Positions 3,001-44,822 of a DNA stretch of 64,000 bases are shown piece after piece (positions within the stretch are counted from its first letter, which is position 1; the number at the start of each line of letters is the position of its first letter). The notes beneath the pieces were generated by a model. That model ran no database searches. It saw only the letters and a list, made by a program, of their open reading frames with translations, and had not been told where the DNA came from. Position numbers and translations under genes: made by a program. The DNA lies in the IMG/VR virus record IMGVR_UViG_3300047409_000726, positions 1 through 64,000 of that record; one strand, given 5' to 3'. This stretch comes from a virus.

Positions 3001-3065
3001 TCGCTGTCGCCCGGATCTCGGGGCAAGCCGAGTATGCAAAAGTGCGCGCGGAGAAAAACCGATGA
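57..3065 (+). CDS. Large virion spike/fibre protein: Ig-like + LamG-like + GH99/WbsX-like glycoside hydrolase + C-terminal carbohydrate-binding module
   Basis: 1002 aa. Ig-like VDLYDG..GTWNYT..GAHSY; LamG-like ELFIFDK..LRAY; GH99-like YQKV..RPVVGLY and ANEVDEG; C-terminal [21 protein letters not shown]. Confidence 0.6.
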
Positions 3066-3799
3066 TCGGGCCAGTCTGCAAAGGCGCCACCGGCCCCACG
3101 GGTCCGAGCGGCGGCCCGACAGGATCTACGGGGCCGACAGGATCGACGGGACCGACTGGTGTCACCGGACAGACAGGATCCAACGGTTCAACAGGGCCAA
3201 CCGGACCAACCGGACTCGCAGGAACACCTGGCGCAACAGGAGCAACAGGACCTACAGGACCTAGCGGTCCAACAGGCTCCGCCGGAACCGCGAGCACCGG
3301 AGCGACAGGCCCTACAGGACCGCAGTTCACGGGCGGCACCGTTCAAGCCACGAAGATCGCAACGAACACGTTCCTAACGAACACTCATGCAACCATCTGG
3401 GAGAACGTTACCGGCAGTGACTTCGCATACTCGGGCACCGGAGACTTCGCGCTCACGGCAGCCGGTTGCGTTCTCACTTACAACGGCGTGAGCGGTCGCA
3501 GCTTCTTGGTTATTTTGGGATGCGGCGTGGAGGGGCCAGGACTTACCCCCGCAGGAGTTTTTGGGATCGGCGTTTCCCTAAACGAAGATCTAGCCGGCAC
3601 GTCAGGAACTACAGACGCATCTGTCGCCGTAGGTGGAATGTTGGACGAGATGGCGATCGTGAACGGGAACGGATCAGCCACATCGCAGCGCAGAGTCACA
3701 TTGAATAACGGAGACACGTTGCGCCCTGTTTGCTTTCAAAATGACGGAAACAGAGATCTGCTCGTCGACGTGCTGTCTTTTTCCGTGATCCCGCAGTGA
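3062..3799 (+). CDS. Collagen-like fibre protein
   Basis: ATG at 3062 overlaps the upstream stop (ATGA); long Gly-X-Thr repeat ([10 protein letters not shown]...) followed by a globular C-terminal domain. Confidence 0.8.
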
Positions 3800-3805
3800 A
3801 GAACC

Positions 3806-5875
3806 TCACGGCATCCACTGGATCTTCGACGTGTCGATCTCGCACCAGTGGCTCTCTCGCTCCTCAGCTCCGTAGGTCACGATGAGGTTCTTGCCGTATA
3901 AAACGGCGCCGGCTGCGTACTCGACGCCGTGATGGTGGAACGTGAACGCGCGTGACACCCTCGTCGGGAGCATCGTCTCGCCGTCGAGCTCGATGAACCG
4001 GTGCAGGTAGACGTTGTCGTTGTCCCGGTGAGCGACTTCATGGATCGACATGATCCAGGTTCCGTCCGGCATCAGGACAGGAGCCGTACCGCCCCTGTAA
4101 CGCGCCATCCTGAACGGCATCGTCTCTTTGATCTTTACCTTGCACCGCCCCGTCTCACCGTCCGTCACGATCACCGTGAAAGGTTCGTAACCGTAGATGA
4201 GATAGAGCTCCCCTTTCAAAGACCACGGAAGCCAATTCTTCTCGTACTCTTGCGTGCCTTCGTATTCGATCTCTTCGGCAAACTCGCCCGAAAGATCGTC
4301 ATGCAATCTCCCGATGACGACTCGGGACTTGTCGTCGCCGCTCGGGGTTTGACACGTCGTCGCCGTGAACCAGACTTTACCCGCGTGCACGTGCCAACGC
4401 TGATCTTCTAGACCCCAGATGCGCCCCTTGGGCCAACCCGCCGGGCAGCGTGCGGTCGAAAGGCGCCACGGGCCTTCAAGACCTCCTTCCGGCGTCCATG
4501 GCGCCCACACGTTCTCGGTCCGAATAATTTGGTCCTTGTGCCGAGCAACGAACCAGCGGCCACGTTCGTGGTTGTAATTGACGAGCCGAACGTTCACGAA
4601 GAGCTCGCCCTCGAATCGAACGATGGTCGGCGAAGACGTGAGGTACTCGGCAAGCTCACTCGTTGCGACGCCTGGCACATCCCCGTTCGTGTCGAACGTT
4701 CGCATCGAAACCGGCACGTCGAACCGGCCGCGCCGCACGACGGCGTCGTACTCTTGCGGCAAGTAATGGAGAAGGTTCCGAACAGAGTTCTCGTAACTCG
4801 CCCAAGCTAGCCCGGGAGTTCGAAGCACTGTTTCGCACGCCTCGTGCCCTTCGTCTTTTCGTCCGAGGTAGTAGGCCGTGACGCTGACCTCTTCAAGAGC
4901 TTGAGCCCGAACGTTCTGATCGACGAAGAGATCCTCACCCGTTGTCTCGCCAAATGGCTCGAGAGCCGTTTTCGCAAAACCGTACGCGGCGCGGTTTTTA
5001 CCTATCCCTCGCAAGTGCTTGGCGACCTCAACGAGCGGCTCCCCCCGTCGCCCGCTTTTCTCGGCAGCGTCGATGAGGCGCATGAGTCCCTCTTCGGTCT
5101 TGCCGACCCCCATGAGAGTTTTACCGAGCATGAGCTCTGCGTACCATCGCTCGCCTTCCCAGCCGCCTGCGGCCTGGCGCATGTCGAAGTACTTGACGGC
5201 CATGTAGTAGTAGGTTTGCGCGAGGTAGTACATCGCCCGAACGTTCTTCGGATCCTCCTCGAGCCGTCGGCGAAGCAGGCGCGCGTCGCGATCGTACTTG
5301 TCGCCCTTCGAGCCGCCGTCGTCACGATCATCGATCCAGAGCGAAAAGAGCTCGGACGCGGGCGCACGATCCGGGTTCGGAGCCCAGTACTCGTGTGTCG
5401 GCTCGCACGAGACCCAGTCAAAATCCATGCGACCAAGCCTCGTGTTCGGGTAGGCGAGCGAGTCCTGCTTTTGGATGAGCCGGTAGTGTGGGTCCCGGAG
5501 CATCGATTTTTCGAACGCCTTCTCGGCGACGAGCACCATGTCGGCGTCGAGGAAAAGCAAATAGGTCTTTTCGAGCTCCCACTTCTTCTCGTTCACCCAA
5601 AGCTTCGCCGCCTTCGACGCCCACGTGCGAGCCGTACCGAAATCGAACTCTCCGTAGGGCCAGCGAAAGGTGTTGCGCGTCATTCCGCCTTCTATCCAGC
5701 AAGGCGTTTCGCGTACCTTGGCCGCTTCGGCGATGATCTTCACCGTGCCGTCTGTCCCCCCAGTGTCGGAAACAACGACGGCGTCGACGAAGGGCAGCGC
5801 CGACTCGAGGCAACGCCCTATAACCTTCCCTTCGTTCTTCACGATCATGTTCAAGACGATCTTCGGCACAGTCAT
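3806..5875 (-). CDS. GT2 glycosyltransferase with TPR repeats and C-terminal beta-propeller-like domain
   Basis: LNMIVKNE, DTG, FLDAD, HE motifs; TPR RAMYYLAQTY; C-terminal GLED and EKNW motifs. Confidence 0.85.
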   Translation of the reverse strand: MTVPKIVLNMIVKNEGKVIGRCLESALPFVDAVVVSDTGGTDGTVKIIAEAAKVRETPCWIEGGMTRNTFRWPYGEFDFGTARTWASKAAKLWVNEKKWELEKTYLLFLDADMVLVAEKAFEKSMLRDPHYRLIQKQDSLAYPNTRLGRMDFDWVSCEPTHEYWAPNPDRAPASELFSLWIDDRDDGGSKGDKYDRDARLLRRRLEEDPKNVRAMYYLAQTYYYMAVKYFDMRQAAGGWEGERWYAELMLGKTLMGVGKTEEGLMRLIDAAEKSGRRGEPLVEVAKHLRGIGKNRAAYGFAKTALEPFGETTGEDLFVDQNVRAQALEEVSVTAYYLGRKDEGHEACETVLRTPGLAWASYENSVRNLLHYLPQEYDAVVRRGRFDVPVSMRTFDTNGDVPGVATSELAEYLTSSPTIVRFEGELFVNVRLVNYNHERGRWFVARHKDQIIRTENVWAPWTPEGGLEGPWRLSTARCPAGWPKGRIWGLEDQRWHVHAGKVWFTATTCQTPSGDDKSRVVIGRLHDDLSGEFAEEIEYEGTQEYEKNWLPWSLKGELYLIYGYEPFTVIVTDGETGRCKVKIKETMPFRMARYRGGTAPVLMPDGTWIMSIHEVAHRDNDNVYLHRFIELDGETMLPTRVSRAFTFHHHGVEYAAGAVLYGKNLIVTYGAEERESHWCEIDTSKIQWMP

Positions 5876-12897: not shown

Positions 12898-13151
12898 CGA
12901 CGAGTCGTCCCTTCCGCCAAGACGACCTCGACGTACCGCCCCGGGATCAACTTCTCGCCCTCGTCCGTTTCCCCTTCGCCGGCCTTCCACGAGACGTGCA
13001 CGGCGTGGTCGTCGAAGGTGACGTCGCACACCGGGAGCTCTTTCTTCAACGCACGCCAGAGCTGCTTCGGCTTCGGGTGGTTGATGGTGACCTTCGGATG
13101 CGTCGCGAGCGCGATGCGGATCTGGGTCGTGAGAGCGTGGAGCGAGATCAT
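12894..13151 (-). CDS. Hypothetical protein
   Basis: Translationally coupled to the recombinase gene. Confidence 0.5.
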   Translation of the reverse strand: MISLHALTTQIRIALATHPKVTINHPKPKQLWRALKKELPVCDVTFDDHAVHVSWKAGEGETDEGEKLIPGRYVEVVLAEGTTRR

Positions 13152-14248
13152 TTTTTCTCTTCCTCCGGCGGCTCGCGGCGCGCGAGCGCTTCGTCGACGA
13201 GTCCTCGTGCGGCCGACTCTTCGATGAGCCCCGCACGGCGCACGTAGCCGAGCACTTCATTCGTCGCGCGGTGCCCAGTCGACTCCATGATGTCGGGGAC
13301 CTTGCGCCCGAGTTTGTACGCCGTCGTGACGAAGCCGCTTCGAAGTGAGTGCCCCCCGAAATCAGAGGGGTCTAACCCCAGCTTTTTCACGTAGTGTTGG
13401 ATCCGACGCGCGACCCCTTCGGGCGCGAGCGCCGCTTCCATGAGCGTCCCCGTCTGCATGTTGACGCCTCGGAACACCGGCCCCTTCTCTATCTTCGAGA
13501 GGGCCAACCAGCGCCTCAAGGAACGCACGGCGCAGTAGCGCTCGTCGCTGGCAGGGGTGAGGGCTACGACGAGCCCCTTGCCCGTCTGGTCGGCCTTGCT
13601 GCGTGGGATCCGCCAACTGATCCCTCCCTCGATCGATTCGAAGTGCTCGACACGTGCAGCAGCGATCTCGCTGCGTCGCCGACCGCCGCCGGCCCAGCCC
13701 ACGAGAATCATCGCGCGATCGCGAACTCCTCGGAGGTCGTCGGTTATCTGGTCGCACACACGGAAGAGCAACGCTTCGCCGTGCGCACCGAGATCTCGTT
13801 TCTGCTTTTTCGGTGCTGTCCCCTTGAGCCGTGCCAACGTGTCGAGCGTTTCACTGATAACCGGGTCTCTCCAAGGGCTTGTGTGTCCAGCTCTCTGATG
13901 ACCTCGACAAATGGCGGCTAGCGCGCGTCGGAGTGAGCTGTAGCTGAGGGGCCCCTTCGGTTTGCCGTTAGGAGTGTCCTCTGGCGCACGCCCCGTCTCG
14001 GCCAGCTCTTGAAGGTAGGCTCGGATAACCCTCGGCTCGGCCGGCAGCGGACGGACGCCGTGGCGAGCGCACCAAGAGGCGAAGCAGGCCAAGTCCAGCT
14101 CGTAGGCCCGCCTGGTGTTCGCAGGGACCGCGGCGTCGGCCGCCTCATCCGCTCGCTTGTCGAGCGCAACGAGCTCTTCCTGCGCGTCGCTGAGAGCGTC
14201 CGCGCCAGTCGGAACAATCCGGTTATCGGGATCGTGCACGAGAACCAT
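13148..14248 (-). CDS. Cre-like tyrosine recombinase
   Basis: RDRAMIL..RRRSEI, RSKADQ, GHSLRSG, TGH and GYVR catalytic residues; N-terminal SAM-like NTRRAY. Confidence 0.92.
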   Translation of the reverse strand: MVLVHDPDNRIVPTGADALSDAQEELVALDKRADEAADAAVPANTRRAYELDLACFASWCARHGVRPLPAEPRVIRAYLQELAETGRAPEDTPNGKPKGPLSYSSLRRALAAICRGHQRAGHTSPWRDPVISETLDTLARLKGTAPKKQKRDLGAHGEALLFRVCDQITDDLRGVRDRAMILVGWAGGGRRRSEIAAARVEHFESIEGGISWRIPRSKADQTGKGLVVALTPASDERYCAVRSLRRWLALSKIEKGPVFRGVNMQTGTLMEAALAPEGVARRIQHYVKKLGLDPSDFGGHSLRSGFVTTAYKLGRKVPDIMESTGHRATNEVLGYVRRAGLIEESAARGLVDEALARREPPEEEKK

Positions 14249-19540: not shown

Positions 19541-20103
19541 GGGCTTTTCCACTGCATGTGGTTGCTGGCGTTGGCCCAGCGCCGATCAAAGTAGTCTTTG
19601 ACGAAGCCGAGGTGACCGCCTTTGCCGTTGCTAACGCACCCGGTGACGGAACATCGACAACCTTTTCCGTGTGTGCTGTCGTGGAAGAACGATGCCTTTT
19701 TACACTCGATGCAGTTGAAAAATTGGACGGAGCTCCATTCGTTCGTTGTTGGTGAGTAACCAAAACCGAAGATGTGGTCGTCAGGGAAGAAAAAAGTTTC
19801 GGAATCGTCGTCGAACTGATCGCTGTAGTGGAGGGTTGCTCCGGCGATCACGATCTCTCCTTCCCAACCGGAGTGAAGGATTTTGTTTTTGTGTGGTTTC
19901 AGTTCTTCGAACGTTGTCGACGATTTGATCTCAACTAACACCGGAGTTTTTAGCTTCAGGATGAAGTCTGGGATGTAGCCGTTCAGATCGATCGGCTCGT
20001 AGTCCCATGCCCACGTTAGGGCGTCGAACATCGCCGCCCATCGTGCTTCGATGCGACTCCTGAATTGAACGCCTTCGTATTTTGTAGGAATGCCTTTGTT
20101 CAT
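19525..20103 (-). CDS. PD-(D/E)XK endonuclease
   Basis: PTKYEGVQFRSRIEARWA..YEP..YIPDF..VEIK. Confidence 0.8.
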   Translation of the reverse strand: MNKGIPTKYEGVQFRSRIEARWAAMFDALTWAWDYEPIDLNGYIPDFILKLKTPVLVEIKSSTTFEELKPHKNKILHSGWEGEIVIAGATLHYSDQFDDDSETFFFPDDHIFGFGYSPTTNEWSSVQFFNCIECKKASFFHDSTHGKGCRCSVTGCVSNGKGGHLGFVKDYFDRRWANASNHMQWKSPQVTQ

Positions 20104-22487
20104 GGTGTTTTTATTCGTGCGACGAACCACGGAGTGCCTCCGCCTTGTTTCGGTCGGTGGTCGAACATGCGGCCTCCGACGTTTTGTTTTTTGTGTTTTT
20201 TAAGTTTCGCGCCGACTTCTCTCGCTGTGAGTTTTTCGGGTGCGCATTCACAGAGTTCGGCGAGGGCTGTCTTGAGTTCTAGGTGTGCGAACGCCGTTGC
20301 ACCTATTTCGTTCAGAAGATCCGAAACAAGTGTGGGCTTGCCGAGTTTCTCCCACGCAACAAGAACTTTTTCGAGAACACTAACTTCAGAGTCTCCAGAT
20401 TCCACGAGCTCAGCACGACCGACGTAGGGATCGGGCATGTCTGACCACACGAGCGCGCCGCGGATGATACGGCTCCAGTTTTCGAAGCTTCCCCACGATG
20501 AAAGTTTTTGGTCGGGACATCCGGCGGCGAAGTAGGCGCGCAAGATGGTGAGCACGGCGACGACGAGCGTCGGACGAACTTTGTTTACATGAGGTAAGAG
20601 TGGGTAGTACTTGAAGCCGCCCCGATCTTCGGGATGTTCCATAAAGGACTCGAGCCGGACGTGAAGGGCGCGTCGGATGAGCTCGGTCGACAAGGTGAGG
20701 TTCTTCGCCGTGATGAGCCAGAGCGCTCGCATTGGCATCGGGATCATCTCAGAGACCCCGAGCTTGCGTTCAGAAATAGTGCCGCTCGTGATCGTTGACG
20801 CAAGCACGGCAGAGTTGAGAGAGCCTTCTAGGTTATCAAGCAGTACGACAGAGTCACCGGAGATTGCGAGCGCGAGGATTCGTTTTCTCATTTCTGTTTC
20901 GTCGGCTAGCGCTATTTTTGGGAGTCCTCTGCCTGAGCAGACTGTACCGATGATGTCAGCGAGCATTCCTGCGCCGGCTCCGTTCACGTTCTTGTCGAGA
21001 AGTCCGAACGGAATTGGGCCATCGATTGCAGGACGAGCGAACGGCGTGAGAAGGAGAGCTAACCACGCGGAAACGTGTTCGTCTGTTTGCCAAGGAAACT
21101 CGTCGATGACGTCCAGGAGTGTAAGAATTGAGCTTCGTGCGTCGTCAATGGTTGGTTCGGTAGGAACGGGTGGGTAGTCCGCGTTCGGTTCGTAGAAAAT
21201 GCCCGTCATCCGATCGTAGCCGGGTGTGTCGAGTATCGTGCCGTCTGGACGAAACACCGGGGACTCTGCAACGGTTTCGAGATAACGAACCCCGGGCCAT
21301 TCTCCGCGTTTGTGAAGTTCGTTGACAGGATCGTCCGGGACGCTGCATTGAACGAGTTTCGGGATGCCGTCGCTTCCGGTCTTCCAACGTTGGAACAGGC
21401 AGACATGCGAAGCAAGTGCGCGGGTTCGTTCTTTTGGTATTGCAGAGATTCGTGGCGATTCGGGTTCGCGCACGATGTCGTCTTCTTTGGTTTTAACGTC
21501 GTCGCGGAGGATCTGTACGAGCTTCCATCCGCGTTTGAAAACGTTCGGTAGTTTTGCGATTGGCGAGAGCATTTGATCGGCGATTTCGAGTTCGTCGAAG
21601 CCGATGGTGATGGCTATTTTTTCTGTGTCGGTAGGAAGAGAAGGTTGAACGGGTGCGAGCCATTTCCTTATCTTTTTTACGAGCTTTTCTCCACCAACGC
21701 CGCCTCCGAGTGGCCGGTCTTTAATCAGGTCTTTTACTTTCCCCCATCTCGTGACGTTTTCGCCCGCGTCCATTTTTTCTTTCGTGCCGGTGACGCTCGC
21801 GCTGCGCGCTTTTGGGTTGTCCGAGCCTCCGGCCCAGGCGACGAGGTAGACGAAGAGCTCGGCATGCTCCGGTGTCCAACCTTCTTGAAGAAGGCCACCG
21901 CCAAGTGCGAGACAAAAATCGTGACGACCTTTTGCTGGAAAATATCTTGCGAGAAGACACGCCGCTGCGAGTTTTTTGACGGCTTCTTCAAGCTTCTTGG
22001 CGTCGACGACCGGAATTTTCGTTACGTCGCAACCGTCTTCGAAGTCGATGAACTCGCCCGAGACGTGGTGGCTTCCTGGAAACACCGTCTGTACGCCGCC
22101 CGTGCGCAGCTCGACGATCGTGCCGCCGTTGGGATCTTCGAACTTTTGGTGTTTCGGAACGTTCGAGAAGTAGAGCCAATGTGATGCGCGCTTCGATGCA
22201 CGGCCGAACCTGCCCGACGTCGCAGGTAAGAAGTACGGTGCAAGTGCGAGCGCTTCGGGGCAATCGATGTCGATGTCGACTAGACCCTTGGACGCTTCGC
22301 CGAGAATGATGCCTATGTTTTGCGGGATGCCGTTGAAGTACTGCGGCGCGGTCTCGTGAGTGATCCGCAGGTTTGTCCAGTCCGGGAGTGTCGGCCCTTT
22401 CTCACGGTATGGGATGGGCACCGGCTGCCATCCCAGATTTATGTATTCGATCGCTAGATCGAAAACCGTGAAGGGTGATGACGACAC
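20100..22487 (-). CDS. Bifunctional prim-pol primase fused to a helicase-like domain
   Basis: NIGI.LG..LVDIDID, SHW.Y, QTVFPGS.H; C-terminal degenerate P-loop (NGAGAG), LLDN, ELIRR. Confidence 0.85.
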   Translation of the reverse strand: MSSSPFTVFDLAIEYINLGWQPVPIPYREKGPTLPDWTNLRITHETAPQYFNGIPQNIGIILGEASKGLVDIDIDCPEALALAPYFLPATSGRFGRASKRASHWLYFSNVPKHQKFEDPNGGTIVELRTGGVQTVFPGSHHVSGEFIDFEDGCDVTKIPVVDAKKLEEAVKKLAAACLLARYFPAKGRHDFCLALGGGLLQEGWTPEHAELFVYLVAWAGGSDNPKARSASVTGTKEKMDAGENVTRWGKVKDLIKDRPLGGGVGGEKLVKKIRKWLAPVQPSLPTDTEKIAITIGFDELEIADQMLSPIAKLPNVFKRGWKLVQILRDDVKTKEDDIVREPESPRISAIPKERTRALASHVCLFQRWKTGSDGIPKLVQCSVPDDPVNELHKRGEWPGVRYLETVAESPVFRPDGTILDTPGYDRMTGIFYEPNADYPPVPTEPTIDDARSSILTLLDVIDEFPWQTDEHVSAWLALLLTPFARPAIDGPIPFGLLDKNVNGAGAGMLADIIGTVCSGRGLPKIALADETEMRKRILALAISGDSVVLLDNLEGSLNSAVLASTITSGTISERKLGVSEMIPMPMRALWLITAKNLTLSTELIRRALHVRLESFMEHPEDRGGFKYYPLLPHVNKVRPTLVVAVLTILRAYFAAGCPDQKLSSWGSFENWSRIIRGALVWSDMPDPYVGRAELVESGDSEVSVLEKVLVAWEKLGKPTLVSDLLNEIGATAFAHLELKTALAELCECAPEKLTAREVGAKLKKHKKQNVGGRMFDHRPKQGGGTPWFVARIKTP

Positions 22488-24127: not shown

Positions 24128-24293
24128 TAGTCGGTCCCGCACCGCCATCGCAAGCGGAGATTCGTTTCGAACGCGATACAACTCTCGTAGATTTTCAGTT
24201 TTTCGTGCAAGCAATCACAAGAGGCGATTTCAAATTTGCGCTCGAGTGTTTTGTCGCTCGTTTGGAATACCCACCACGCGATTTAAATTGAAA

Positions 24294-26603
24294 ATGCCCG
24301 ACTTTAAAGAAGCAGAACCGTCGCACGTCTCTCCGCCCGTCGTCGTGTCGGCCATCGACCAGTTACGGTCTTATCAGAAGCGCGATTACCGTGACGTGCT
24401 TGCGCGTTGTGAGGCGGTGCGTCGTGTCTTGTACGTTGCGTTCATGGGTTCCGGTAAGACAGTGCTCGCGGCGGCGTTGATTCGCACGTGGGTTGCTCGT
24501 GGCGAACACATTCTCATCTTGACGCACACGCGAGAGATTCTTCGACAGACGCACGACAAGTTGTTGAGCGCCGGCATTCCGGAAGAACAGATCGGGTGGA
24601 TCTGGCGAGATCACGTCCGAACGAATTCGAAGGCGTTGATTCAGCTCGCGAGCCTCGACACTCTCGTGCGACGAGATTTTCCGAAAGGGATCACACGCAT
24701 CGTCATCGACGAGGCCCATCACGCAACCGCGCAAAAGTGGCGCGGCGTGCTCGATGCTTACCCGGAAGCTCGTGTGCTCGGGCTCACAGGAACGCCGGTG
24801 CGTTTGGACGGGCAACCGCTTGGCGCCGTGTTCGAAGAGATGATCGAAAGCGAGCCGGTTGAAAGTTTGATCGAACAAGGTTGGATCGCACGTCCTTCGT
24901 ATTGGACGCCGATGTGGAATGTCGAACTACCGCGCCGTTCCGGACAAGACTTCGGTGATCTTGTTGCTGCGGAGATGATACCGCATGCGAGAGTGCTCGA
25001 GAGCATGGTCGCGGAGTATTCGAAGCACGCCGCCGGGTTGCCGGCACTTGGCTTCGCCGCCACTCGCGAAAAGGCCGAGCAGTACGCAGCACACTTCACT
25101 GCGTCCGGCATTCCGGCTGATACCCTCTTCGGTTCGGACACGGATCTTAAACGACAAGGGACGTTGGCGCGTCTCCGTAAAAGAGCGCTTCGTGTGCTCT
25201 GGACATGCAACGTGTTAGGCGAAGGTTGGGATTACCCTGGACTTCGTTGCGTGATGCTCGCGCGCCCGACGTTGTCGATCGCGCGGTACCTTCAACAAGT
25301 TGCGCGATGCATGCGTCCTGGGGATCCGCCTGTGGTGCTCGACTTGTGGGGGGCATGGAATGTTTTCAGCCCGCCTTGGTCCGATTTCGGATGGAGCTTA
25401 GAGGCAAAAGCGCGCAGAAGATTGTATAAAGGCGAGCGTAGTACCGACGGCGAGGTGACGTGGCTACCTCCTGTTGAGGTCGAAGGGCAACTTGTGCGTG
25501 CGGATACGTTGGTGCAGACACCGTGTTCGGTGTGTGGTGCGCCAGCAACTCGTGCGAGCGCGGCAAATGCGGCGATTGGAAAAAATAAACCGTACTGTGC
25601 GGCGCACGCTAGAGGTTTGAATTACGGTCTTCCGCCGCTCCCGTGTGCGATTTGTGGTGAGCCGGCAACTAAAATGAGTTCACAGAATGCGCGAGCTAAG
25701 GGCGGCGCACGGAAGCCTTACTGCGAGAAACACAAAGGCGGTCTTCTTACGAAAATTACGCGGCTTCCGTGTGCGGTCTGTGGTGCGCCCGCAACTCTTA
25801 ACAGCACAAAGATGTCTCTCAACAGAGGCGACAAGCCGTACTGCGTGCAGCACAAAGGAGGGCCTTCCGCAAAACTTCCACTGCTCCCGTGCACGATCTG
25901 TGGCGCGCCTGCGATTAAGAGTAGTTCACAGAATGCGCGGCTGCGCGGGCAAAAGCCATATTGCGAGAAACACAAAGGCGGCCCCTCCGCAAAACTCCCG
26001 CCGCTCCCGTGTGGGATCTGTGGGAAACCGACATCGCGCATCGCTTCGTTGAGCGCTCGGTCTCGTGGTGGAAAGGCGTATTGTAAAGAGCACCGTTACG
26101 GCGGCCGCAAAACTTCCCAAAACTTCCCGTTACTTCCGTGTGCGATCTGCGGGAAGCCGGCTACTAAGATGAGTTCGGAAACTGCGCGACTTCAAGGGCA
26201 CAGACCGTATTGTAGCGACCACAAGGCAGGCTCACATCCGTTACTTACTTGTGCTATTTGTGGGAAACCAGCTAGTAAAGGCAGCTCTAACAGCGCACGA
26301 TACAGAGGGGGCGGTGCGAAAGCGTATTGTAAAGAGCACAGGAAAGGGCCCGTAGCGCCTAAGCCGTTACTTCCTTGCGCGATCTGCGGAGAGCCAGCGA
26401 CCAAAAGCAGTTCGTTGCAAGCAGGCTACGAAGGGCGCAAGTCGTATTGTGAGAAACACAAAGGAGGAGGCCACAAACCCCCGTTACTTCCTTGCGCGAT
26501 CTGTGGGGCGGTGACGAACAGCCGGAATTCGACAGCCGCGCGTTACAGAGGCGGCAAAGCATATTGCGTGAAGCACAAGTACGGACGGAACGCGGATGCC
26601 TGA
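24294..26603 (+). CDS. SF2 DEAH helicase with nine C-terminal C3H zinc-finger repeats
   Basis: LR.YQ, GSGKT, IDEAHH, GLTGTP, EGWD.P, Q.VAR..R; 9x CxxCG-x17-19-YCxxH. Confidence 0.85.
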   Translation: MPDFKEAEPSHVSPPVVVSAIDQLRSYQKRDYRDVLARCEAVRRVLYVAFMGSGKTVLAAALIRTWVARGEHILILTHTREILRQTHDKLLSAGIPEEQIGWIWRDHVRTNSKALIQLASLDTLVRRDFPKGITRIVIDEAHHATAQKWRGVLDAYPEARVLGLTGTPVRLDGQPLGAVFEEMIESEPVESLIEQGWIARPSYWTPMWNVELPRRSGQDFGDLVAAEMIPHARVLESMVAEYSKHAAGLPALGFAATREKAEQYAAHFTASGIPADTLFGSDTDLKRQGTLARLRKRALRVLWTCNVLGEGWDYPGLRCVMLARPTLSIARYLQQVARCMRPGDPPVVLDLWGAWNVFSPPWSDFGWSLEAKARRRLYKGERSTDGEVTWLPPVEVEGQLVRADTLVQTPCSVCGAPATRASAANAAIGKNKPYCAAHARGLNYGLPPLPCAICGEPATKMSSQNARAKGGARKPYCEKHKGGLLTKITRLPCAVCGAPATLNSTKMSLNRGDKPYCVQHKGGPSAKLPLLPCTICGAPAIKSSSQNARLRGQKPYCEKHKGGPSAKLPPLPCGICGKPTSRIASLSARSRGGKAYCKEHRYGGRKTSQNFPLLPCAICGKPATKMSSETARLQGHRPYCSDHKAGSHPLLTCAICGKPASKGSSNSARYRGGGAKAYCKEHRKGPVAPKPLLPCAICGEPATKSSSLQAGYEGRKSYCEKHKGGGHKPPLLPCAICGAVTNSRNSTAARYRGGKAYCVKHKYGRNADA

Positions 26604-28377
26604 TCCCATCGACCTCTCCAACATCTTCGCTGCCGTTGCCGAAGCAACCAACGGCGCGCGGCGAGGTACGGCTCTCGGTAAGATTCGAGAAGCTGAAGGC
26701 GTAAGACACACGCCCGAGCTCGATAGGATCATCATGATCCCACGGCGTGTGCCCCTCACGCCCGACGAGGAAGCCGAACAGATCGATCTGCTCACGAATC
26801 ATCTCCGCACGCCGGGCGGGACGATGCGGCTCCGCCCGGTGCAGTCCCAAGCTCTCTACGAGATGCACGACTACGGTGGCCTCTTCGGGCCCATCCGAGT
26901 CTCCGGCGGCAAGACGCTCATCTCCCTCCTCGCGCCGCTCGTGCTCGAGGCGCAGCGGCCGATGCTCATCGTCCCCGCTGCCTTGATCGAAAAGACACGC
27001 ACCGAAGCCAGCAAGCTTGCTCAGCACTGGAAGCTCCCGCCGTTCCTTCACATCGTGAGCTACCAAGCGCTTGGCCGTGTCTCTGGTGCGGAGACGCTCG
27101 AGAAGGCAAACCCTGACCTCATCATCTGCGACGAGGCGCACAAGCTCAAGAACAAGCGCGCTGCCGTCACGAAGCGTGTCGCCAGGTATATGCACGACCA
27201 CCCCGAGACGCGCATGGTCATATTGACCGGCACGATCTCGAAGCGTTCGCTTCATGACTTCTCGCACCTTTTGCTCTGGTCTTTGAAGCTCCGAACACCA
27301 CTTCCGCGGCACTGGACCGAGCTCGAGGCGTGGGCGCTTGCGCTCGACGAGCGACCGAATTCAGTTGTGCCGCCGCTCTACCCGGGGGCGATTTTGAAGC
27401 TTGCGACCGAGGAAGACACTGGTGGCGCGACAGAGCGGGCGCGCAAAGCAGTGCGACGTCGGATCAATGGCACGCCCGGTGTCGTGACGGCTTCCGGTCC
27501 GGGTTGTGACGTGAGTCTTCGGGTGCAAGGGCACATCGTCGAGACGTTGGAAGTGACCGAGGAAGCGTTTGACCGACTTCGTTCGAAATGGGAAACGCCC
27601 GATGGTTGGCCGCTCTCTGACGGGTTTGCGATTTGGCGACACGCACGCGAGCTCGCTTTAGGGTTTTATTATCGATGGGAAGTTCGACCGCCCGACGAAT
27701 GGCTCGAGGCGCGGAAAGCCTGGTCGGCGTTTTGTCGGAAAGTTCTTGGAAGTAATCAACGCCGGCTCGATTCCGAGATGCAGGTTGCGCTCGCGTGCAA
27801 GGATCATCCTGAATGGTACGGTGACCAAGAGTACAAGGCGTGGGTCGCGATTCGTGACACGTTCAAACCGAAGACCGTTGCGGTGCCGTTCGACGACTCG
27901 GTTCTGGAGTACTGCCAAGAGTGGTCCAAGCACGGCGGACTCATCTGGTGCGAGCACATTGATTTTGCGAACCGGCTCTCGTCCATGACGGGCATTCCGT
28001 ACTTCGCTGGTGAAGGTCTCGATGCGCACGGAAATTCGATCGAGACCTACGACGGTACGACGGCGATTCTTTCGATCGAGGCGAATCGAGAGGGTCGGAA
28101 CCTTCAACGGTTTTCGAGAAATCTCGTGAGTTCGGTACCGCAGCAGGGCGACCGAATGCAGCAGCTCCTCGCGCGTACGCATCGTGACGGGCAAGAAGCC
28201 GATGAAGTGATCTGCGACATCGTAGTCTCGTGCGCCGAGCACGTTGAGGCGATGCACATCATGCAGAGCGACGCGCGCTACCAAGAGGACATCACCGGAG
28301 ATCATCAGAAACTTTTGCTCGCGGACATCGTCGTGCCGAACACGATGCACTTGAAAGGAGCGGTTTGGAACAGATGA
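26596..28377 (+). CDS. SF2 (SNF2-like) helicase
   Basis: SGGKT, CDEAH, LTGT, EGRNLQ, QLLARTHR.GQ. Confidence 0.85.
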   Translation: MPDPIDLSNIFAAVAEATNGARRGTALGKIREAEGVRHTPELDRIIMIPRRVPLTPDEEAEQIDLLTNHLRTPGGTMRLRPVQSQALYEMHDYGGLFGPIRVSGGKTLISLLAPLVLEAQRPMLIVPAALIEKTRTEASKLAQHWKLPPFLHIVSYQALGRVSGAETLEKANPDLIICDEAHKLKNKRAAVTKRVARYMHDHPETRMVILTGTISKRSLHDFSHLLLWSLKLRTPLPRHWTELEAWALALDERPNSVVPPLYPGAILKLATEEDTGGATERARKAVRRRINGTPGVVTASGPGCDVSLRVQGHIVETLEVTEEAFDRLRSKWETPDGWPLSDGFAIWRHARELALGFYYRWEVRPPDEWLEARKAWSAFCRKVLGSNQRRLDSEMQVALACKDHPEWYGDQEYKAWVAIRDTFKPKTVAVPFDDSVLEYCQEWSKHGGLIWCEHIDFANRLSSMTGIPYFAGEGLDAHGNSIETYDGTTAILSIEANREGRNLQRFSRNLVSSVPQQGDRMQQLLARTHRDGQEADEVICDIVVSCAEHVEAMHIMQSDARYQEDITGDHQKLLLADIVVPNTMHLKGAVWNR

Positions 28378-29304: not shown

Positions 29305-31158
29305 ATGCAGTCCTTCGACACTGAAACCTTCCTCATCACCGACGGCAACCTTGCCCCGGATCTCGTGTGCATTTCTTTCGCCGGGCCCGACTACGTTGCC
29401 GAGCTTTACCACGCGATCGACGGCTCTCCGACGTTCCGCGCGATGGCCGACTGCGCCTTGGCCAAGAACACTCCGGTGATTGGTGCGAACACCGCCTACG
29501 ACATGGGCGTCATGCTTGCGCACGATCCGTCGCTCGCTGATCGGATCTGGACGCTCTACGACCAAGGGCTCGTGCGCGACGTGATCATGCGTCAGAAGAT
29601 GATCGATATCGCGAAAGGTTGCTACGGCGGATTCAGGCGCGGTGAAGACGGCAAGGCGTACAAGATCGGGTACAGCCTGGCCGATCTCACGAAGCGGCAC
29701 TTGGGTCATGAGCTCGACAAGGGTGCGGACACCTGGCGTCTCAGGTACTCGGAGCTCTACGAGGTGCCTTTGCCTGAATGGCCAGCGGAGGCGCAAGGGT
29801 ATGCCAAGGACGACGCGGTCGCGACGGTCGCCGTCTATCAGGCACAGGAGGCCGACGCGGCGCTGCTCCTCGACGAGCCGGCACGGTGCCGCACGGCGTG
29901 GATGCTCCACCTCATGTCCTGCTACGGGATCAAAACGGATCCGGAAGCCGTCGCCGCGTTCGTTCGGGCCACAGAGAAGAGCGTCGAAGAACTCAAAGCC
30001 GTTCTAGTAAATTGGGGCTTAGTACGTCCAAGCGGCACGCGAGACACGAAAGCTGCGAAGGCTCTTATGGTCAGCGTGTGCGCGGCCAAGGGTTTGGAGA
30101 TCGTAAAAACCGACGGCGGTGACGTCGCCCTCGACGACGCGACGTGCAAGAAGACAGGTGATCCTGTTCTCACCGCTTACGCAAACTTCTCGAGCCTTGC
30201 GAAAGTCGTTTCGACTGACATCCCGATCCTTCTCAAAGGCGTCGACACGCCGATTCAGACTCGTTTCGAACCGCTTCTAGAAACCGGTCGCACGTCGTCG
30301 AGCGCGCCCAATATTCAGAACATCAAGCGCCTGGTCGGGATGCGCGAGTGCTTTCGGCCTCGTCCTGGGTACGTCTTCGTCGACGCGGACTACGCGATGC
30401 TTGAGCTATGCACGTGGGCGCAGACGTGTCTCTGGGCCTTGGGGTACTCGAGGCTCGCGGAAGTTCTGAACGCCGGTGACGATCCGCACTTGGCCTTCGC
30501 GGCTCAGATCCTTGGCATCACCTACGATGAAGCGAAGGCGCGACGTAAGGGCGGTGACAAGGAAGTCGAGCAACGACGTCTCGTGGCGAAGGTCGGAAAC
30601 TTCGGTTTCCCTGGCGGCCTCGGCAAAGACAGTTTCGTCGAATACGCCGCGTCTTCGTACAAGGTGAGCATCACCGTTGAGAAAGCCGCGGAGCTGAAGA
30701 GTTTCTGGCTAGCACAATGGCCAGAAGCCCGAGCGTACTTCGATTGGATTGCGAAGAAAGAACAGGACAGCGGAATTTCGATGCAGCGCTTCGTCGTTGG
30801 ATCGTGGCGCTCCGGTATGCGGTACACGGTCGCGTGCAACGACCCGTTTCAGAGTCTCGGTGCGACGGCCGCGACGTGGGCCGGTTACGATCTCGCGCGG
30901 GCCTGCTACTACGAGCGAGACCATATTCTCTTCGGCTCGCGGCCCGTGAACTTCATCCATGACCAATACCTCGTCGAAGTACTCGACGACTACTACGCGC
31001 ACGATCGCGCGATGGCCGTGGCGAGCATCATGGTCGCGGCGGCGAAGCGAGCGATCCCTGACGTGACGCCGAAGGTCGAGCCTCTCTTGTGTAGGTACTG
31101 GAGCAAGGACGCGAAAGAAGTCTTCAAGGACGGGAGGCTCGTGCCGTGGCCCTCATAG
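29305..31158 (+). CDS. polA: Family A DNA polymerase with 3'-5' exonuclease
   Basis: FDTET, N.AYD, YA.DD exonuclease motifs; TGRTSS..PNIQNI; motif A DADYAMLEL; motif B AKVGNFG; motif C IHDQ. Confidence 0.93.
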   Translation: MQSFDTETFLITDGNLAPDLVCISFAGPDYVAELYHAIDGSPTFRAMADCALAKNTPVIGANTAYDMGVMLAHDPSLADRIWTLYDQGLVRDVIMRQKMIDIAKGCYGGFRRGEDGKAYKIGYSLADLTKRHLGHELDKGADTWRLRYSELYEVPLPEWPAEAQGYAKDDAVATVAVYQAQEADAALLLDEPARCRTAWMLHLMSCYGIKTDPEAVAAFVRATEKSVEELKAVLVNWGLVRPSGTRDTKAAKALMVSVCAAKGLEIVKTDGGDVALDDATCKKTGDPVLTAYANFSSLAKVVSTDIPILLKGVDTPIQTRFEPLLETGRTSSSAPNIQNIKRLVGMRECFRPRPGYVFVDADYAMLELCTWAQTCLWALGYSRLAEVLNAGDDPHLAFAAQILGITYDEAKARRKGGDKEVEQRRLVAKVGNFGFPGGLGKDSFVEYAASSYKVSITVEKAAELKSFWLAQWPEARAYFDWIAKKEQDSGISMQRFVVGSWRSGMRYTVACNDPFQSLGATAATWAGYDLARACYYERDHILFGSRPVNFIHDQYLVEVLDDYYAHDRAMAVASIMVAAAKRAIPDVTPKVEPLLCRYWSKDAKEVFKDGRLVPWPS

Positions 31159-38735: not shown

Positions 38736-39146
38736 GTGACCGGCTCCGGCGACTTCTCGATCGGCAGCAAAGTCTGGCCGGGCACCTCGAAGCTTCTCGA
38801 AGAGATGGGCGAGCTTCAACAGGTGCTCGGTAAGCTCATCGCCGTCGCGGGGAGCACCGAGCATTGGGACGGTGACCTCAGACCGAGGCTCATCGAAGAG
38901 ATCGGTGACGTCTCAGCAGCGCTTGGTTTTTTCATGGAGCAGAACTTCGTGGGCGATGAATCTTTGATCGCTAATAGAATCGTGGAGAAGCTTCGACTCT
39001 TTCGAAAGTGGCACACCGGGCAAGATCAACACATTCGATGCTCTGGGCGCAGTCCTATGGGAAATCGATGCGAAAAATTCAGCGGTCATCTTGGCTCGTG
39101 TCACGCGAATGACGGCGAGCACGTCGAAGATTGGATGAACACATGA
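38736..39146 (+). CDS. MazG-like NTP pyrophosphohydrolase
   Basis: KLLEEMGELQQ..K and LIEEIGDV. Confidence 0.75.
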   Translation: MTGSGDFSIGSKVWPGTSKLLEEMGELQQVLGKLIAVAGSTEHWDGDLRPRLIEEIGDVSAALGFFMEQNFVGDESLIANRIVEKLRLFRKWHTGQDQHIRCSGRSPMGNRCEKFSGHLGSCHANDGEHVEDWMNT

Positions 39147-39592
39147 GACCGACTTGGCCCGAAACTTGGATGTCGATCGCGCGTGTCATCGCCGAGCGAT
39201 CCTACGACCCTCGCCTCAAGGTCGGCGCGATCATCGTCACGAGCGACAACACACAGATGCTCTCCGGCGGCTACAACGGTAACTACGCCGGTGGCCCACA
39301 CGAGCACGAGTCGCCTGAGCCTGGGCAGAGTGGGTTTATCCACGCCGAGGTGAACGCGCTCGTGAAGCTCGACTTCAACAACCCGAAAGAGAAACACCTG
39401 TACCTCACGCATTCGCCGTGCAGAATGTGCGCAAAACTCATCATCAACGCCGGCATCAAGCGTGTGGTGTACGGCGAGGCGTACCGAGACCCGAGTGGTG
39501 TGAAGCTCTTGCAGGGGGTTGGCGTCGATACGTATTCGTTTGAAGATGCTGTTTGGGCTGCGAAGAATCCGGGTGCTGGGCCGTCTCGATGA
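39143..39592 (+). CDS. dCMP deaminase
   Basis: KVGAII, GYNG, HAEVNA, SPCRMC, GIKRVVY. Confidence 0.92.
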   Translation: MRPTWPETWMSIARVIAERSYDPRLKVGAIIVTSDNTQMLSGGYNGNYAGGPHEHESPEPGQSGFIHAEVNALVKLDFNNPKEKHLYLTHSPCRMCAKLIINAGIKRVVYGEAYRDPSGVKLLQGVGVDTYSFEDAVWAAKNPGAGPSR

Positions 39593-40120: not shown

Positions 40121-40348
40121 TCATGCCTCAGGTGCTCCGGGGATCTTCCGGTTCGTGATTATTTTGAGCGCGATCGAGAGCAGCGGGCCCTCGATGTGTT
40201 TCGGTACCAAGATGCCGAGTTCGCGCTGTGCCCGATCAAGCGCAGCGCCGAATGTTAGGTTGTTGTCGGCCGTGAGAATGTCGATGACCCTCTCGAGCAC
40301 CGGTGCGCAGTGTCGCGCGTCGCGTAGCGCTTCTTCGACGGCTGTCAC
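40121..40348 (-). CDS. Small hypothetical protein, last gene of the putative Cas7-like operon
   Basis: GTG at 40348 overlaps the upstream stop. Confidence 0.45.
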   Translation of the reverse strand: MTAVEEALRDARHCAPVLERVIDILTADNNLTFGAALDRAQRELGILVPKHIEGPLLSIALKIITNRKIPGAPEA

Positions 40349-40842
40349 TAGTCGTCCCCGTTGAACAACACGACCTGCGCAGCCTGCGCGCAGGCGTCCT
40401 GAAGCGATTCGCCTTGAAAGAACCCCTTCACTTCGTAGCCGTCGTTGGAGAGGCTTGCCTCGAACATCTTGATCTCTCGCTTGCCTTCGGCGTTGACGCC
40501 CATCTCGATGGATCGGACGCCGGCCTCGCGTGCACGGAGCCACCGGTCGAGCGCTTCGAAGATCCGCACAGCTCCCTCGCCCTCGGCTTGGCGTATCTCG
40601 GCTTCTCGTGACTCGACCTGCGCGCGTACGGGCACGATGGTGACCGTTTTCATACGGAAGATGAGCTTACACGCTAGGTCGAGGTAGGCGCTCTCAGGGT
40701 TCGCTCGAACGTATAGCTCGTCGATCTCGTTGATGGTGTCGCGGAGCGCTTCTGCGAGCTCGTGAATCACGTCCTCGGACGTCATGGGAGCGGGGCGAGG
40801 GGGCGAGGAGTGTTTCGAGCGGGTAAGCGGGGCGTCGTTCAT
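40348..40842 (-). CDS. Hypothetical protein immediately downstream of the pentamer array
   Basis: RBS AAAGGAA lies in the tail of array unit A; 164 aa. Confidence 0.55.
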   Translation of the reverse strand: MNDAPLTRSKHSSPPRPAPMTSEDVIHELAEALRDTINEIDELYVRANPESAYLDLACKLIFRMKTVTIVPVRAQVESREAEIRQAEGEGAVRIFEALDRWLRAREAGVRSIEMGVNAEGKREIKMFEASLSNDGYEVKGFFQGESLQDACAQAAQVVLFNGDD

Positions 40843-40871
40843 CTTGGGTTCCTTTGTGTGTAGAAACGGTC

Positions 40872-41049
40872 CTTTGGTTTGCTCGGCTGTGCGCAGCGAT
40901 GCGTAGCCCGGCGGCGCGCCGATTCGGGTGGCTTTGCTGAGCGCTGCTTTGTTGAGCGGTGCGTGGCGCTGCGGTGCCGAGACTTGCCGAGCATTGCTTT
41001 ACAACGCGACGTTGCGCCATGCTGAGCACCGTACCGCTCAGCGGAGTTT
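40872..41049 (-). repeat. 5-nt periodic tract A (34 pentamers), candidate guide RNA
   Basis: + strand 40880-41049: GC in register in 26/34 pentamers, G in 33/34; bounded by CTTTGGTTTGC. Confidence 0.9.
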
Positions 41050-41097
41050 GTTGGGTTTGAAAAAAAGCTGTTCGGCACGGGGTTCGTTGAAAGTGTC

Positions 41098-41210
41098 CTT
41101 TGGTTTGCTTGGCAGTGCGTCACGACGCGGGGCAGGGTCGCGCGACGATCCGCTTCCCGGTGCACTGATCTGCTTGACCGTGCTGGGCACAGCGCCGCAC
41201 TGCGATGAGG
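41098..41210 (-). repeat. 5-nt periodic tract B (21 pentamers), candidate guide RNA
   Basis: + strand 41106-41210: GC in register in 14/21; bounded by CTTTGGTTTGC. Confidence 0.85.
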
Positions 41211-41254
41211 GTTTTGAAAAAGTTGTTTGTGCGCGGGTTGTGCGAAAAGTGTGA

Positions 41255-41337
41255 CTTTGATTTGCTGGGCTGAGCACGACTGAGCTTCGCGTCGCGTCGC
41301 TGGGCCGGGTTTCGCGAGGCGCTGCGTCGCTGGGTTT
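41255..41337 (-). repeat. 5-nt periodic tract C (15 pentamers), candidate guide RNA
   Basis: + strand 41263-41337: GC in register in 12/15; bounded by CTTTGATTTGC; starts 5 nt after the Cas7-like stop. Confidence 0.85.
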
Positions 41338-41342
41338 CTTTT

Positions 41343-41987
41343 CTAGGCCACCTTCCGTTTCATCGCAGCCGTCCCGTCGACGCAGTCCCATGCGACGACG
41401 TGGAAGAGCCCAAACGGCCCGCGCTTCTCAGGGCGGAAGGCGCCGATACCTAGTTGTTCTCCGGCCTCGGTGAGGAGCTGTCTCACGAACGCCGGATCCA
41501 TGAGGTTCTCGTTGATGCGGATCGTGCACTTCAACGTCCAGCGTTCGATGCGTGGACGGTGAGCGAGCAGTGCGCCTTTCGTGCTTGGGTTGACGACCCG
41601 GCGACTGTCCACCTCGTAGGTCGTGATGCGCGTTTTCCGGTCTTCATTGTAGAGCGGTGCAAGCTCGTCGAGAACGAGCACCGCGGCCGGCACGCGATAC
41701 TTCATCGACTTGCGGGTGCCCTTCTCCTTGTGGTTGCCGCCGGCTTCGACGATCGCGCGTTGTACACCGGTGCCAGGGAACACGAGTGGGGAGTCGAGCT
41801 TCCCGTTCTCGCGGTAGCAGCTCTTCTCGGCGATCTCTCGCGGAGTGAGTTGCTTGACGGCTGTGATAGATGGCCGAGTGCCTGGGCCACTGCCGCCGGG
41901 TACGTTTTCGGCTGCTTCTGTTCCAAACGCCGCCATAAGTAGCGGCATCGTTCCTTCGATCCAAGTTTCTGTGTATTGAAAAGACAC
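41343..41987 (-). CDS. Solo Cas7/RAMP-like RNA-binding protein
   Basis: 214 aa. N-terminal strand I.G..PLL; P...V..AI.EA helix; RP.I..W strand; C-terminal glycine-rich loop L.EAG..LGIG.FRP.K.G.FG.F.V, typical of RAMP/Cas7 folds; RBS AAAGGAG before GTG. Confidence 0.72.
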   Translation of the reverse strand: MSFQYTETWIEGTMPLLMAAFGTEAAENVPGGSGPGTRPSITAVKQLTPREIAEKSCYRENGKLDSPLVFPGTGVQRAIVEAGGNHKEKGTRKSMKYRVPAAVLVLDELAPLYNEDRKTRITTYEVDSRRVVNPSTKGALLAHRPRIERWTLKCTIRINENLMDPAFVRQLLTEAGEQLGIGAFRPEKRGPFGLFHVVAWDCVDGTAAMKRKVA

Positions 41988-42014
41988 TGAGATTCTCCTT
42001 TGGTTGAAAATGAG

Positions 42015-42152
42015 CTTTGGTTTGCGCGGCTGAGCGTGGCGATGCGGTGCGCTGCGAGGCGTAGATCTGCTGAGGGCCGCTCTGTTGTGCGGGGGCGCGC
42101 TAGGCGGGGCGGCGATATGCTTTGCCGGGGCCTGCCCTGCGGCGCGGTGAAT
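42015..42152 (-). repeat. 5-nt periodic tract D (26 pentamers) in the leader of the Cas7-like gene, candidate guide RNA
   Basis: + strand 42023-42152: G in register in 26/26, GC in 19/26; bounded by CTTTGGTTTGC. Confidence 0.9.
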
Positions 42153-42698
42153 TTAGGTGAACGACCTTCCTCTCTCGCCGATGGCGTTCGCGAAGAGTGC
42201 AGCAACGACGCCGACGAACAGGCCGCCGATGTGGGCACCGACACTGACGTCGCCACCGTTGCCGGTTAGTGCCTGCCAAGTGCTGACAGCGCAAAAGGCG
42301 AAAGCGAATCCGATGAATCGGCGGTCGACCGCTACGGAGTACGTGACCAGGCCGCAGACAGCCCCGGAGGCGCCTACCATCGGGATTGAAGAGCCTGAAG
42401 CTACGATAATGTGGAGAGCGGCTCCGGCGACCGCTGCGAGGGCGTAGAGGCAGAGGAACCGAGCGCCCCCGATGACCCTCTCGACCAGGCTGCCGAAAAC
42501 GGCCAAAAAGGCCATGTTACAGCCCAGGTGAACGAGGGTCCTAGGGTCGTGCAGGAAGGAGTAGGTGAGGAGCGAGCCCAGGCCCGGATGGGCCGGAACT
42601 AGGCCGAATTTCTCGCAGACCGGCATCCCGCCACTCGAGAGCTCGAGGGCGTAAACGGCCGCGTTCAGCGTCACGAGAAGGAGGGTCACGAGGGGCAT
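42153..42698 (-). CDS. Rhomboid intramembrane serine protease
   Basis: FLH..HL..NM, GASGA (catalytic Ser), AHIGG (catalytic His), multiple TM helices. Confidence 0.9.
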   Translation of the reverse strand: MPLVTLLLVTLNAAVYALELSSGGMPVCEKFGLVPAHPGLGSLLTYSFLHDPRTLVHLGCNMAFLAVFGSLVERVIGGARFLCLYALAAVAGAALHIIVASGSSIPMVGASGAVCGLVTYSVAVDRRFIGFAFAFCAVSTWQALTGNGGDVSVGAHIGGLFVGVVAALFANAIGERGRSFT

Positions 42699-44764: not shown

Positions 44765-44822
44765 CGCTCACCGCTTCATCCCCGGCGCGGCGCTCACCGC
44801 TTCATCCCCGGCGCGGCGCTCA
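44765..44822 (+). repeat. 26-bp tandem duplication within ORF 44682-44909
   Basis: CGCTCACCGCTTCATCCCCGGCGCGG twice, then CGCTCA. Confidence 0.9.

Follow-up and report, generated by a model that had tools for sequence, protein, structure and literature searches.

Between nucleotides 40860 and 42155 of the virus record IMGVR_UViG_3300047409_000726, four tracts on the + strand keep a strict period of 5 nucleotides (nt), each in the register (GCNNN)n, and they flank a gene for a 214-amino-acid (aa) protein. The locus raises the question of what these tracts encode and, if their variable bases are a code, which of the bases are read and against which targets. An initial annotation, made from the letters of the window (the first 64,000 nt of the 80,264-nt record, G000), proposed that the dinucleotides following every NGC on the + strand form a gapped targeting code. 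We find it highly probable that the locus is a Viral Interference Programmable Repeat (VIPR) system with guide RNAs (vrRNAs) on the minus strand, in which two bases of the target are read and one is skipped. One of the four guides, D, matches the rhomboid protease genes of other phages when the read bases are displaced by one position from those listed in the initial annotation.

Four pentamer tracts adjoin a gene for a Vipr homologue

The tracts are confined to one place: across the 64-kb window and the whole 80,264-nt record, 60-nt windows with at least 7 of 12 in-phase GC dinucleotides occur solely at 40856–41055, 41096–41220, 41241–41350 and 41991–42160. In minus-strand order, the locus consists of the rhomboid gene, vrRNA D, vipr, vrRNAs C, B and A, and a 164-aa open reading frame (ORF), with the following features.

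42153–42698, minus strand: the virus's own rhomboid protease gene (Pfam PF01694, E 4e-19)
42024–42153, minus strand: vrRNA D repeat tract, 26 units, beginning right after the stop codon of the own rhomboid gene
42004–42023, minus strand: vrRNA D 3′ tail, with the conserved motif AAAYCAAAG...TTT, overlapping the ribosome-binding region of vipr
41343–41987, minus strand: vipr gene, 214 aa, RAMP protein with the G-loop GIGAFRPEKRGPFG
41264–41338, minus strand: vrRNA C repeat tract, 15 units, directly downstream of the vipr stop codon
41212–41263, minus strand: vrRNA C tail, with a U run (minus strand) at 41217–41221
41107–41211, minus strand: vrRNA B repeat tract, 21 units
41060–41106, minus strand: vrRNA B tail, with seven U in a row (minus strand) at 41060–41066
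40881–41045, minus strand: vrRNA A repeat tract, 33 units of 5 nt
40861–40880, minus strand: vrRNA A tail, closely upstream of the start of the 164-aa ORF
40348–40842, minus strand: 164-aa ORF, downstream of the arrays

The 214-aa protein provides the first clue to the nature of the locus. A profile built from it and 25 homologues (26 sequences in total) matches the chain 36pp_D of the PDB, annotated as 'SUSP1 Vipr protein', with an E-value of 1.1e-8 over positions 4–192 of 211. Foldseek places its AlphaFold model (pLDDT 81.7) closest to chains from type III-A Csm complexes, with E about 1e-7; we take these chains to be the Csm3/Cas7 subunit. From its sequence and model, the protein is a Vipr homologue with a predicted Csm3-like fold.

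VIPR is a CRISPR-like DNA silencer, described in 2026, for which a rule of one skipped nucleotide has been published, with the repeat 5′-GGYNN-3′ on the vipr-sense strand (bioRxiv 10.64898/2026.04.26.720920). We assembled a related set of 74 viral loci that encode a Vipr homologue, each oriented with vipr on the + strand. Arrays with a period of 5 stand beside the homologue's gene in 73 of them, and the remaining locus ends right after the gene. Because the window encodes a Vipr homologue, and because such arrays adjoin its homologues in 73 of 74 loci, we assign the locus to VIPR with high confidence. The carrier is viral, with matches to integrase, DNA polymerase, helicase, primase and dCMP deaminase elsewhere on the 80,264-nt record.

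The tracts share flanking sequence as well as period. A CCTTTGGTTT-like sequence precedes every tract on the + strand, and the tail motif AAAYCAAAG...TTT recurs in all 7 tails of the window and a sister phage (G003, carrying locus L008) taken together. We also observed a 7-bp inverted repeat (GCTGAGC ... GCTCAGC) at 41020–41043, which lies in register within the first units of tract A, at the 5′ end of the RNA; it is conserved in L008 and appears terminator-like in a scan of the + strand.

The minus strand probably carries the repeat and sets the read bases

GC is its own reverse complement, and the tracts read (GCNNN)n on either strand; because of this palindrome, the strand must be decided by other evidence. 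In the 74 related loci, the commonest array consensus on the vipr-sense strand is GGtnn (67 arrays), followed by GGcnn (27) and GGCnn (19), with gGCnn intermediates. On the minus strand of the window, position 3 of the repeat is a pyrimidine in 94 of 95 units, which fits the Y3 pocket of Vipr, described as excluding purines (10.64898/2026.04.26.720927), and 76 of the 95 have G at position 2. The first position is relaxed, with 33 A, 39 C, 12 G and 11 U among the 95 units (A or C in 72), so that the tracts depart from the canonical GGY triple, whose first base is G. The locus therefore lacks the canonical form of the repeat, yet it can still belong to the VIPR family, in which YNNNG repeats also occur. 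In addition, the minus strand has a U run after the tail of B and another after that of C. Because of the GGY-NN arrays on the vipr-sense strand of relatives, the composition of the minus strand and the U runs, we take the read bases to be the two that follow each x-G-C on the minus strand, which are positions 4–5 of GCNNN on the + strand rather than positions 3–4.

The four lists of dinucleotides given in the initial annotation reproduce positions 3–4 of each + strand unit letter for letter. Every listed dinucleotide is displaced by one base, because the right rule was applied to the wrong strand. With a palindromic GC as the fixed part of the repeat, the choice of strand decides which two bases are read, and an error of one base in the register makes every target search fail.

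Guide D matches the rhomboid genes of other phages

When D units 13–24 are written as an NNx pattern in the corrected register (NN, two read bases; x, one skipped base; units numbered along the + strand), the viral collection contains exactly one matching locus. It belongs to a 109-kb phage (G001), where the match is in frame with a gene for a 182-aa rhomboid protein; the G001 record is 100% complete according to CheckV, and no Vipr match was found in it. The match continues for three units beyond the query, so that D units 11–25 match at 15 of 15 units and 30 of 30 bases, with every skip on a wobble position. These units spell PLVGASGAIFGLLAV of the rival phages' rhomboid genes, the segment that carries the catalytic serine. 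A second phage (G002; 70.6 kb, with terminal repeats and no Vipr match) matches the same units at 13 of 15 units and 27 of 30 bases. The published threshold for targeting is an 80% match of the NN bases, and the same work reports that self-targeting is absent (10.64898/2026.04.26.720920); G001 and G002 both exceed this threshold over D units 11–25. The rhomboid gene of the sister phage G003, which itself carries Vipr, matches at 10 of 15 units. The virus's own rhomboid copy matches at 21 of 30 bases, and at 27 of 52 over all 26 units, both below 80%; judged by sequence, this copy is below the threshold for targeting.

The codon for the catalytic serine differs among these genes, being TCC in the own gene (42342–42383), TCG in G002, AGT in G001 and AGC in G003, and the guide reads AG. 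Because of this, a TCN serine codon removes two read bases and leaves the protein unchanged; the TCG codon accounts for one of the two mismatched units in G002.

A scan of the whole G001 genome gave 20/20 for D at one skip against a shuffle maximum of 17, the sole clear excess among 32 combinations of array, register and skip, in a test that is partly circular as G001 had been found with the same D pattern. The proposal in the initial annotation that two bases pair and one is skipped, with the skip on the wobble position so that synonymous escape is hard, is borne out by D on G001 in the corrected register. The idea of a wobble skip is already in print (10.64898/2026.04.26.720920, 10.64898/2026.10.15.759431), the second of these sources presenting the argument from codon periodicity and escape. 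The annotation had rediscovered the gapped code of VIPR from sequence alone, a sound idea and not a new one.

The register as originally listed gave no such match. Read as a searchable code, the listed dinucleotides do not exceed shuffles under any gap model (0–3 skips) in the virus's own genome or in G001, and at one skip nothing rises above shuffles in the 74 related loci. The whole of D scores 30/52 against G001–G003 in that register (shuffle mean 29.9) and 36 in the shifted register (shuffle maximum 32). The annotation had also noted that D could spell a CxxC-like peptide, (E/D)VSCASCGRYGGY, perhaps by chance. The peptide can indeed be spelled from D at + strand positions 3–4, but it is an artefact of the shift, and its 12-unit pattern has no match in the viral collection. 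These results bear on the alternative that the RNAs are transcribed from the + strand and that the NN after each NGC is the code. The palindromic GC makes both strands look like (GCNNN)n, and the hairpin at 41020–41043 is terminator-like on the + strand, as this alternative would have it. However, on the vipr-sense strand the arrays of relatives are GGY-NN and not its complement, and together with the failed searches this makes a + strand code extremely unlikely.

The initial annotation had offered a contiguous triplet code as a second possibility, with the GC deleted, all three variable bases read and no target base skipped. There is some room for such a code in the repeat: position 1 has no fixed G, both residues that hold G1 in SUSP1 Vipr are Ala here, and the base could pair. 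The matched phages may also not be the exact natural targets, and the wobble bases of the true target may differ. However, the base skipped in the target equals the third variable base at only 4 of 15 units in G001 and 6 of 15 in G002, about what chance gives for this composition. The GC-deleted triplets of D do reach 24/30 against a shuffle maximum of 23, a score made up of the 20 NN bases and the chance share of the other 10; those of B reach 23/30 against a shuffle maximum of 22, and A and C are not above shuffles. Taken together, these numbers make the triplet code very unlikely, and we retain the reading of two bases read and one skipped.

Another explanation would dispense with RNA guidance altogether: the tracts could act as DNA, as protein-binding iterons or as a recombination or packaging signal, or be inert repeats, with the match to rhomboid genes reflecting common descent from a gene fragment. 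Transcription of the tracts is a prediction, and D abuts the own rhomboid gene, as such descent might leave it. However, the match appears only after three of every five bases are dropped and one wildcard is inserted, which descent from a fragment does not yield. The tracts also adjoin a Vipr homologue in 73 of 74 loci, and VIPR has been demonstrated by experiment to be RNA-guided in SUSP1 and P. fulva (10.64898/2026.04.26.720920, 10.64898/2026.04.26.720927). We regard a purely DNA-level or inert role as most improbable, and an RNA-guided VIPR system as the preferred reading.

Extent of the D match

Over all 26 units, D matches G001 at 36 of 52 bases and G002 at 32 of 52, below 80%, and neither phage shows a match to unit 26 or to the ten units next to the tail. 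Exact scans here and below used the corrected register and 10-unit NNx windows, required a perfect match and covered only part of each tract, so that a null result does not imply the absence of targets; such a scan of viral contigs with D units 1–10 gave no match. The true target of D is possibly a rhomboid allele with a different upstream loop, from outside the collections. It is also possible that the tract consists of two stacked guides; long tracts and a partial D match would fit stacked guides, compared with the staggered arrays mentioned in 10.64898/2026.04.26.720920.

In the metagenome collection, the pattern of D units 13–24 matches three loci, all of them rhomboid genes at the motif GASGAIFGLLA, and one of the three is the G001 contig again. 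The other two (L095 and L096) are cellular-type rhomboid genes with N-terminal Cys-rich regions; their exact match to the 12 queried units spells VGASGAIFGLLA, with a serine codon of AGC or AGT. Guide D could have a partial off-target in a host rhomboid gene.

Searches for self-targets and for targets of guides A, B and C

The initial annotation reported no convincing self-target by eye, and this was confirmed, in agreement with what VIPR predicts: in the virus's own genome, shuffled guides do as well as the real ones in every register and at every skip from 0 to 3, the one exception being the trivial match of the tracts to themselves at a skip of 3. The best self scores at one skip are 35/66 for A, 24/42 for B, 20/30 for C and 28/52 for D (53–67%), all within the shuffle range and below 80% of NN bases.

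Guides A, B and C yielded no targets in the sequences scanned. Exact scans of viral contigs gave no match for B units 5–14 and 11–20 or for C units 3–12, and an exact scan of metagenome contigs gave none for A units 12–21. A units 1–10 gave one match in genome contigs, in an Oligoflexales metagenome-assembled genome, which we rejected: it does not extend (34/66) and lies at about the chance expectation. In mismatch-tolerant scans of the own genome, G001, G002, G003 and the 74 Vipr loci, none of the three guides rose above shuffles, with one marginal exception for B. This candidate, in locus L073, scores 17/20 against a maximum of 16 in 5 shuffles, does not extend (24/42) and has its skips off the wobble position of the ORF; it was also rejected. 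These scans for A, B and C cover a small part of sequence space, and their null results do not show that targets are absent.

Two broader searches led back to D. Degenerate-peptide scans, scored by identity or BLOSUM62, returned only D against rhomboid genes and a chance locus that had been selected by its seed. When the guides of the 74 related loci were compared with the local set using 8-unit seeds (27,800 queries), D on G001 and one bare 8-unit seed were left after removal of low-complexity matches.

Guide tracts are exchanged between close relatives

The Vipr of the sister phage G003 (L008) is 99% identical to that of the window. The two loci share tract A only, with one extra unit and two NN changes in L008, where the upstream guide differs and one other tract takes the place of B and C. 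A 12-kb contig from another soil run (X2) keeps the 164-aa ORF, tract A and vipr; 149 other letters replace B and C (41048–41344), and there is no alignment across D (41987–42210). Because L008 and the X2 contig show the same cassette pattern, we conclude that guide tracts are exchanged between close relatives. Read in the corrected register, the guide upstream of vipr in L008 matches the rhomboid gene of G002 perfectly over 9 units in a row, 6 nt downstream of the D site; this is no more than suggestive of this guide targeting the same rival gene as D.

The base at repeat position 1 covaries with a G-loop residue

In SUSP1 Vipr, H17 and D177 hydrogen-bond G1 of the repeat (10.64898/2026.04.26.720927). 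In a HMMER alignment, Ala19 and Ala183 of the window's protein stand opposite H17 and D177. We compared the G-loop residue with the frequency of G at repeat position 1 in 75 loci (the 74 and the window), of which 68 could be scored; 6 failed the search for the G-loop motif and one has no array. The 64 loci with Asp in the G-loop have a mean G frequency of 0.78 (range 0.45–0.92), and the single locus with Ile has 0.71. For the three loci with Ala, which are the window, L008 and L073, the values are 0.09, 0.20 and 0.33.

At 3323–4130 and 4812–4900, L073 has a Vipr 28% identical to that of the window, with the G-loop QIGIGAFRP, and x-G-C-N-N arrays; it represents a second, independent lineage with the relaxed repeat. 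Among protein-only homologues, those with at least 63% identity all have Ala, and more distant ones have Ser, Asp and, in a few cases, Ala. The covariation points to loss of the contacts to G1 as the origin of the x-G-C repeat form, with only two independent lineages to draw on.

These observations can be joined, tentatively, in the picture of a relaxed-motif, multi-guide subtype of VIPR. A change of His and Asp to Ala would have freed position 1, at least twice; the long tracts would be stacked blocks of guides; and guides would stand beside the virus's own recoded copy of the gene that they silence in rivals. We consider this combination possible but doubtful as a whole. Under this subtype, D may be made up of a 15-unit block against rhomboid genes and a separate 10-unit block.

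Points that weigh against the VIPR assignment

Several observations count against the assignment of the locus to VIPR or against the breadth of its support. Transcription of the vrRNAs, their strand, their ends and their processing are all predictions. The predicted folds of the tails are no better than those of shuffled sequences and none is stable, and a scan of the locus found no sigma-70-like promoter. A target was found for one of the four arrays, and over only 15 of its 26 units. The segment targeted by D is a widely conserved protein motif, and the match extends in phage genes only: the two cellular-type genes L095 and L096 are exact at the 12 queried units and do not extend beyond them. 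The second guide that points to a rhomboid gene, from L008, is weak, as its score of 20/24 on G002 is matched by 2 of 200 shuffles and other registers give 18–21. Finally, no vap gene was recognised: the 164-aa ORF and a 140-aa ORF have neither a significant Pfam or PHROG match nor a usable lead in the Atlas, and their homologues occur in just 1 of the 74 related loci. The 164-aa ORF may be an accessory gene specific to the lineage, though it is not recognisable as a vap.

Neighbouring genes and the virus

An ORF of 131–156 aa directly upstream of vipr (at about 3060–3490 of the loci concerned) and on its strand is common to 16 of the 74 related loci (L041–L043 and 13 more). This ORF is a candidate vap for its 16-locus subclade, and the window does not have it.

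Elsewhere in the window, PHROG matches identify an integrase, a primase/polymerase, two helicases and a DNA polymerase (13148–14248, minus strand; 20100–22487, minus strand; 24246–28377, + strand; 29305–31158, + strand). The virus, an uncultured soil phage, is probably temperate and has replication genes of its own. Its DNA polymerase has a best identity of 29.5% among GenBank phages, from which no host can be inferred, and blastn of the locus against GenBank phages gave zero matches; an Rfam search returned nothing usable. Just upstream of the VIPR locus and on the opposite strand, at 38736–39592 (+ strand), are genes for a MazG-like NTP pyrophosphohydrolase (a weak PHROG match) and a dCMP deaminase (PHROG E 5e-47). 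Unrelated to the pentamers is a perfect direct tandem repeat of 26 bp at 44765–44822, for which Tandem Repeats Finder gives 2.2 copies, a 100% match and a score of 116.

Proposed mechanism and relation to known systems

By homology with the solved SUSP1 system, the locus would work as follows. Each vrRNA would consist of 15–33 pentamers 5′-[A/C]-G-C-N-N-3′ followed by a short conserved tail. One Vipr protomer would bind each pentamer, sequestering the x-G-C triple and presenting the NN pair. The resulting filament would pair NN with double-stranded DNA, skipping every third target base, and its binding would silence transcription of the rival element.

The locus is best described as a member of the VIPR family with a published repeat form, YNNNG, and with the rule of one skipped nucleotide at least for guide D. 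Written in YNNGG notation, the repeat is C-N-N-[A/C]-G; the alternative repeats NNNGG, YNNNG and NNNNG, together with staggered arrays, are mentioned in 10.64898/2026.04.26.720920, which reports no targeting data on them in its main text. The locus goes beyond the published record in three modest ways. The little-studied x-G-C (YNNNG) form gains an example of a natural target, and it follows the same skip rule there. The covariation of Asp or Ala in the G-loop with G or non-G at position 1 gives a hint of how the specificity for the repeat is determined. The third addition is a rhomboid protease gene that serves as a target of silencing between phages. The word 'rhomboid' does not occur in the main text of 10.64898/2026.04.26.720920.

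The closest likeness is to the type II exemplars of VIPR, SUSP1 and a Pseudomonas fulva prophage. As in these systems, the locus is phage-encoded, its only RAMP protein is a homologue of SUSP1 Vipr, two bases vary in each pentamer, and the 3′ tail is conserved. It likewise reads two bases and skips one, with the skips on wobble positions, targets in rival phages and none in its own genome. Its layout, with one vrRNA (D) upstream of vipr and three (C, B and A) downstream, is the one described for SUSP1 (10.64898/2026.04.26.720920). In contrast to type II VIPR, the repeat is [A/C]-G-C-N-N and not G-G-Y-N-N, Ala stands at both positions equivalent to H17 and D177 of SUSP1 Vipr, the tracts have 15–33 units instead of 9–16, and a vap is not recognised. 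The tail of the SUSP1 clade is a pseudoknot, whereas the tail folds predicted here are no better than shuffles, and the target is a rhomboid protease gene where those of the type II exemplars are a satellite recombinase or a regulator of lysis and lysogeny.

A more distant likeness is to Cas7/Csm3 of class 1 CRISPR systems, with which the protein shares an RRM core, a glycine-rich loop and a thumb, in keeping with type III-A Csm chains as the top Foldseek matches. If homology with SUSP1 is a guide for the VIPR side, the two would also share the binding of one subunit per repeat and the periodic displacement of bases. Unlike class 1 CRISPR systems, the locus lacks a CRISPR array, cas genes and a second RAMP protein, and its period sets 5 nt of guide against 3 nt of target, where that of class 1 CRISPR sets 6 against 6.

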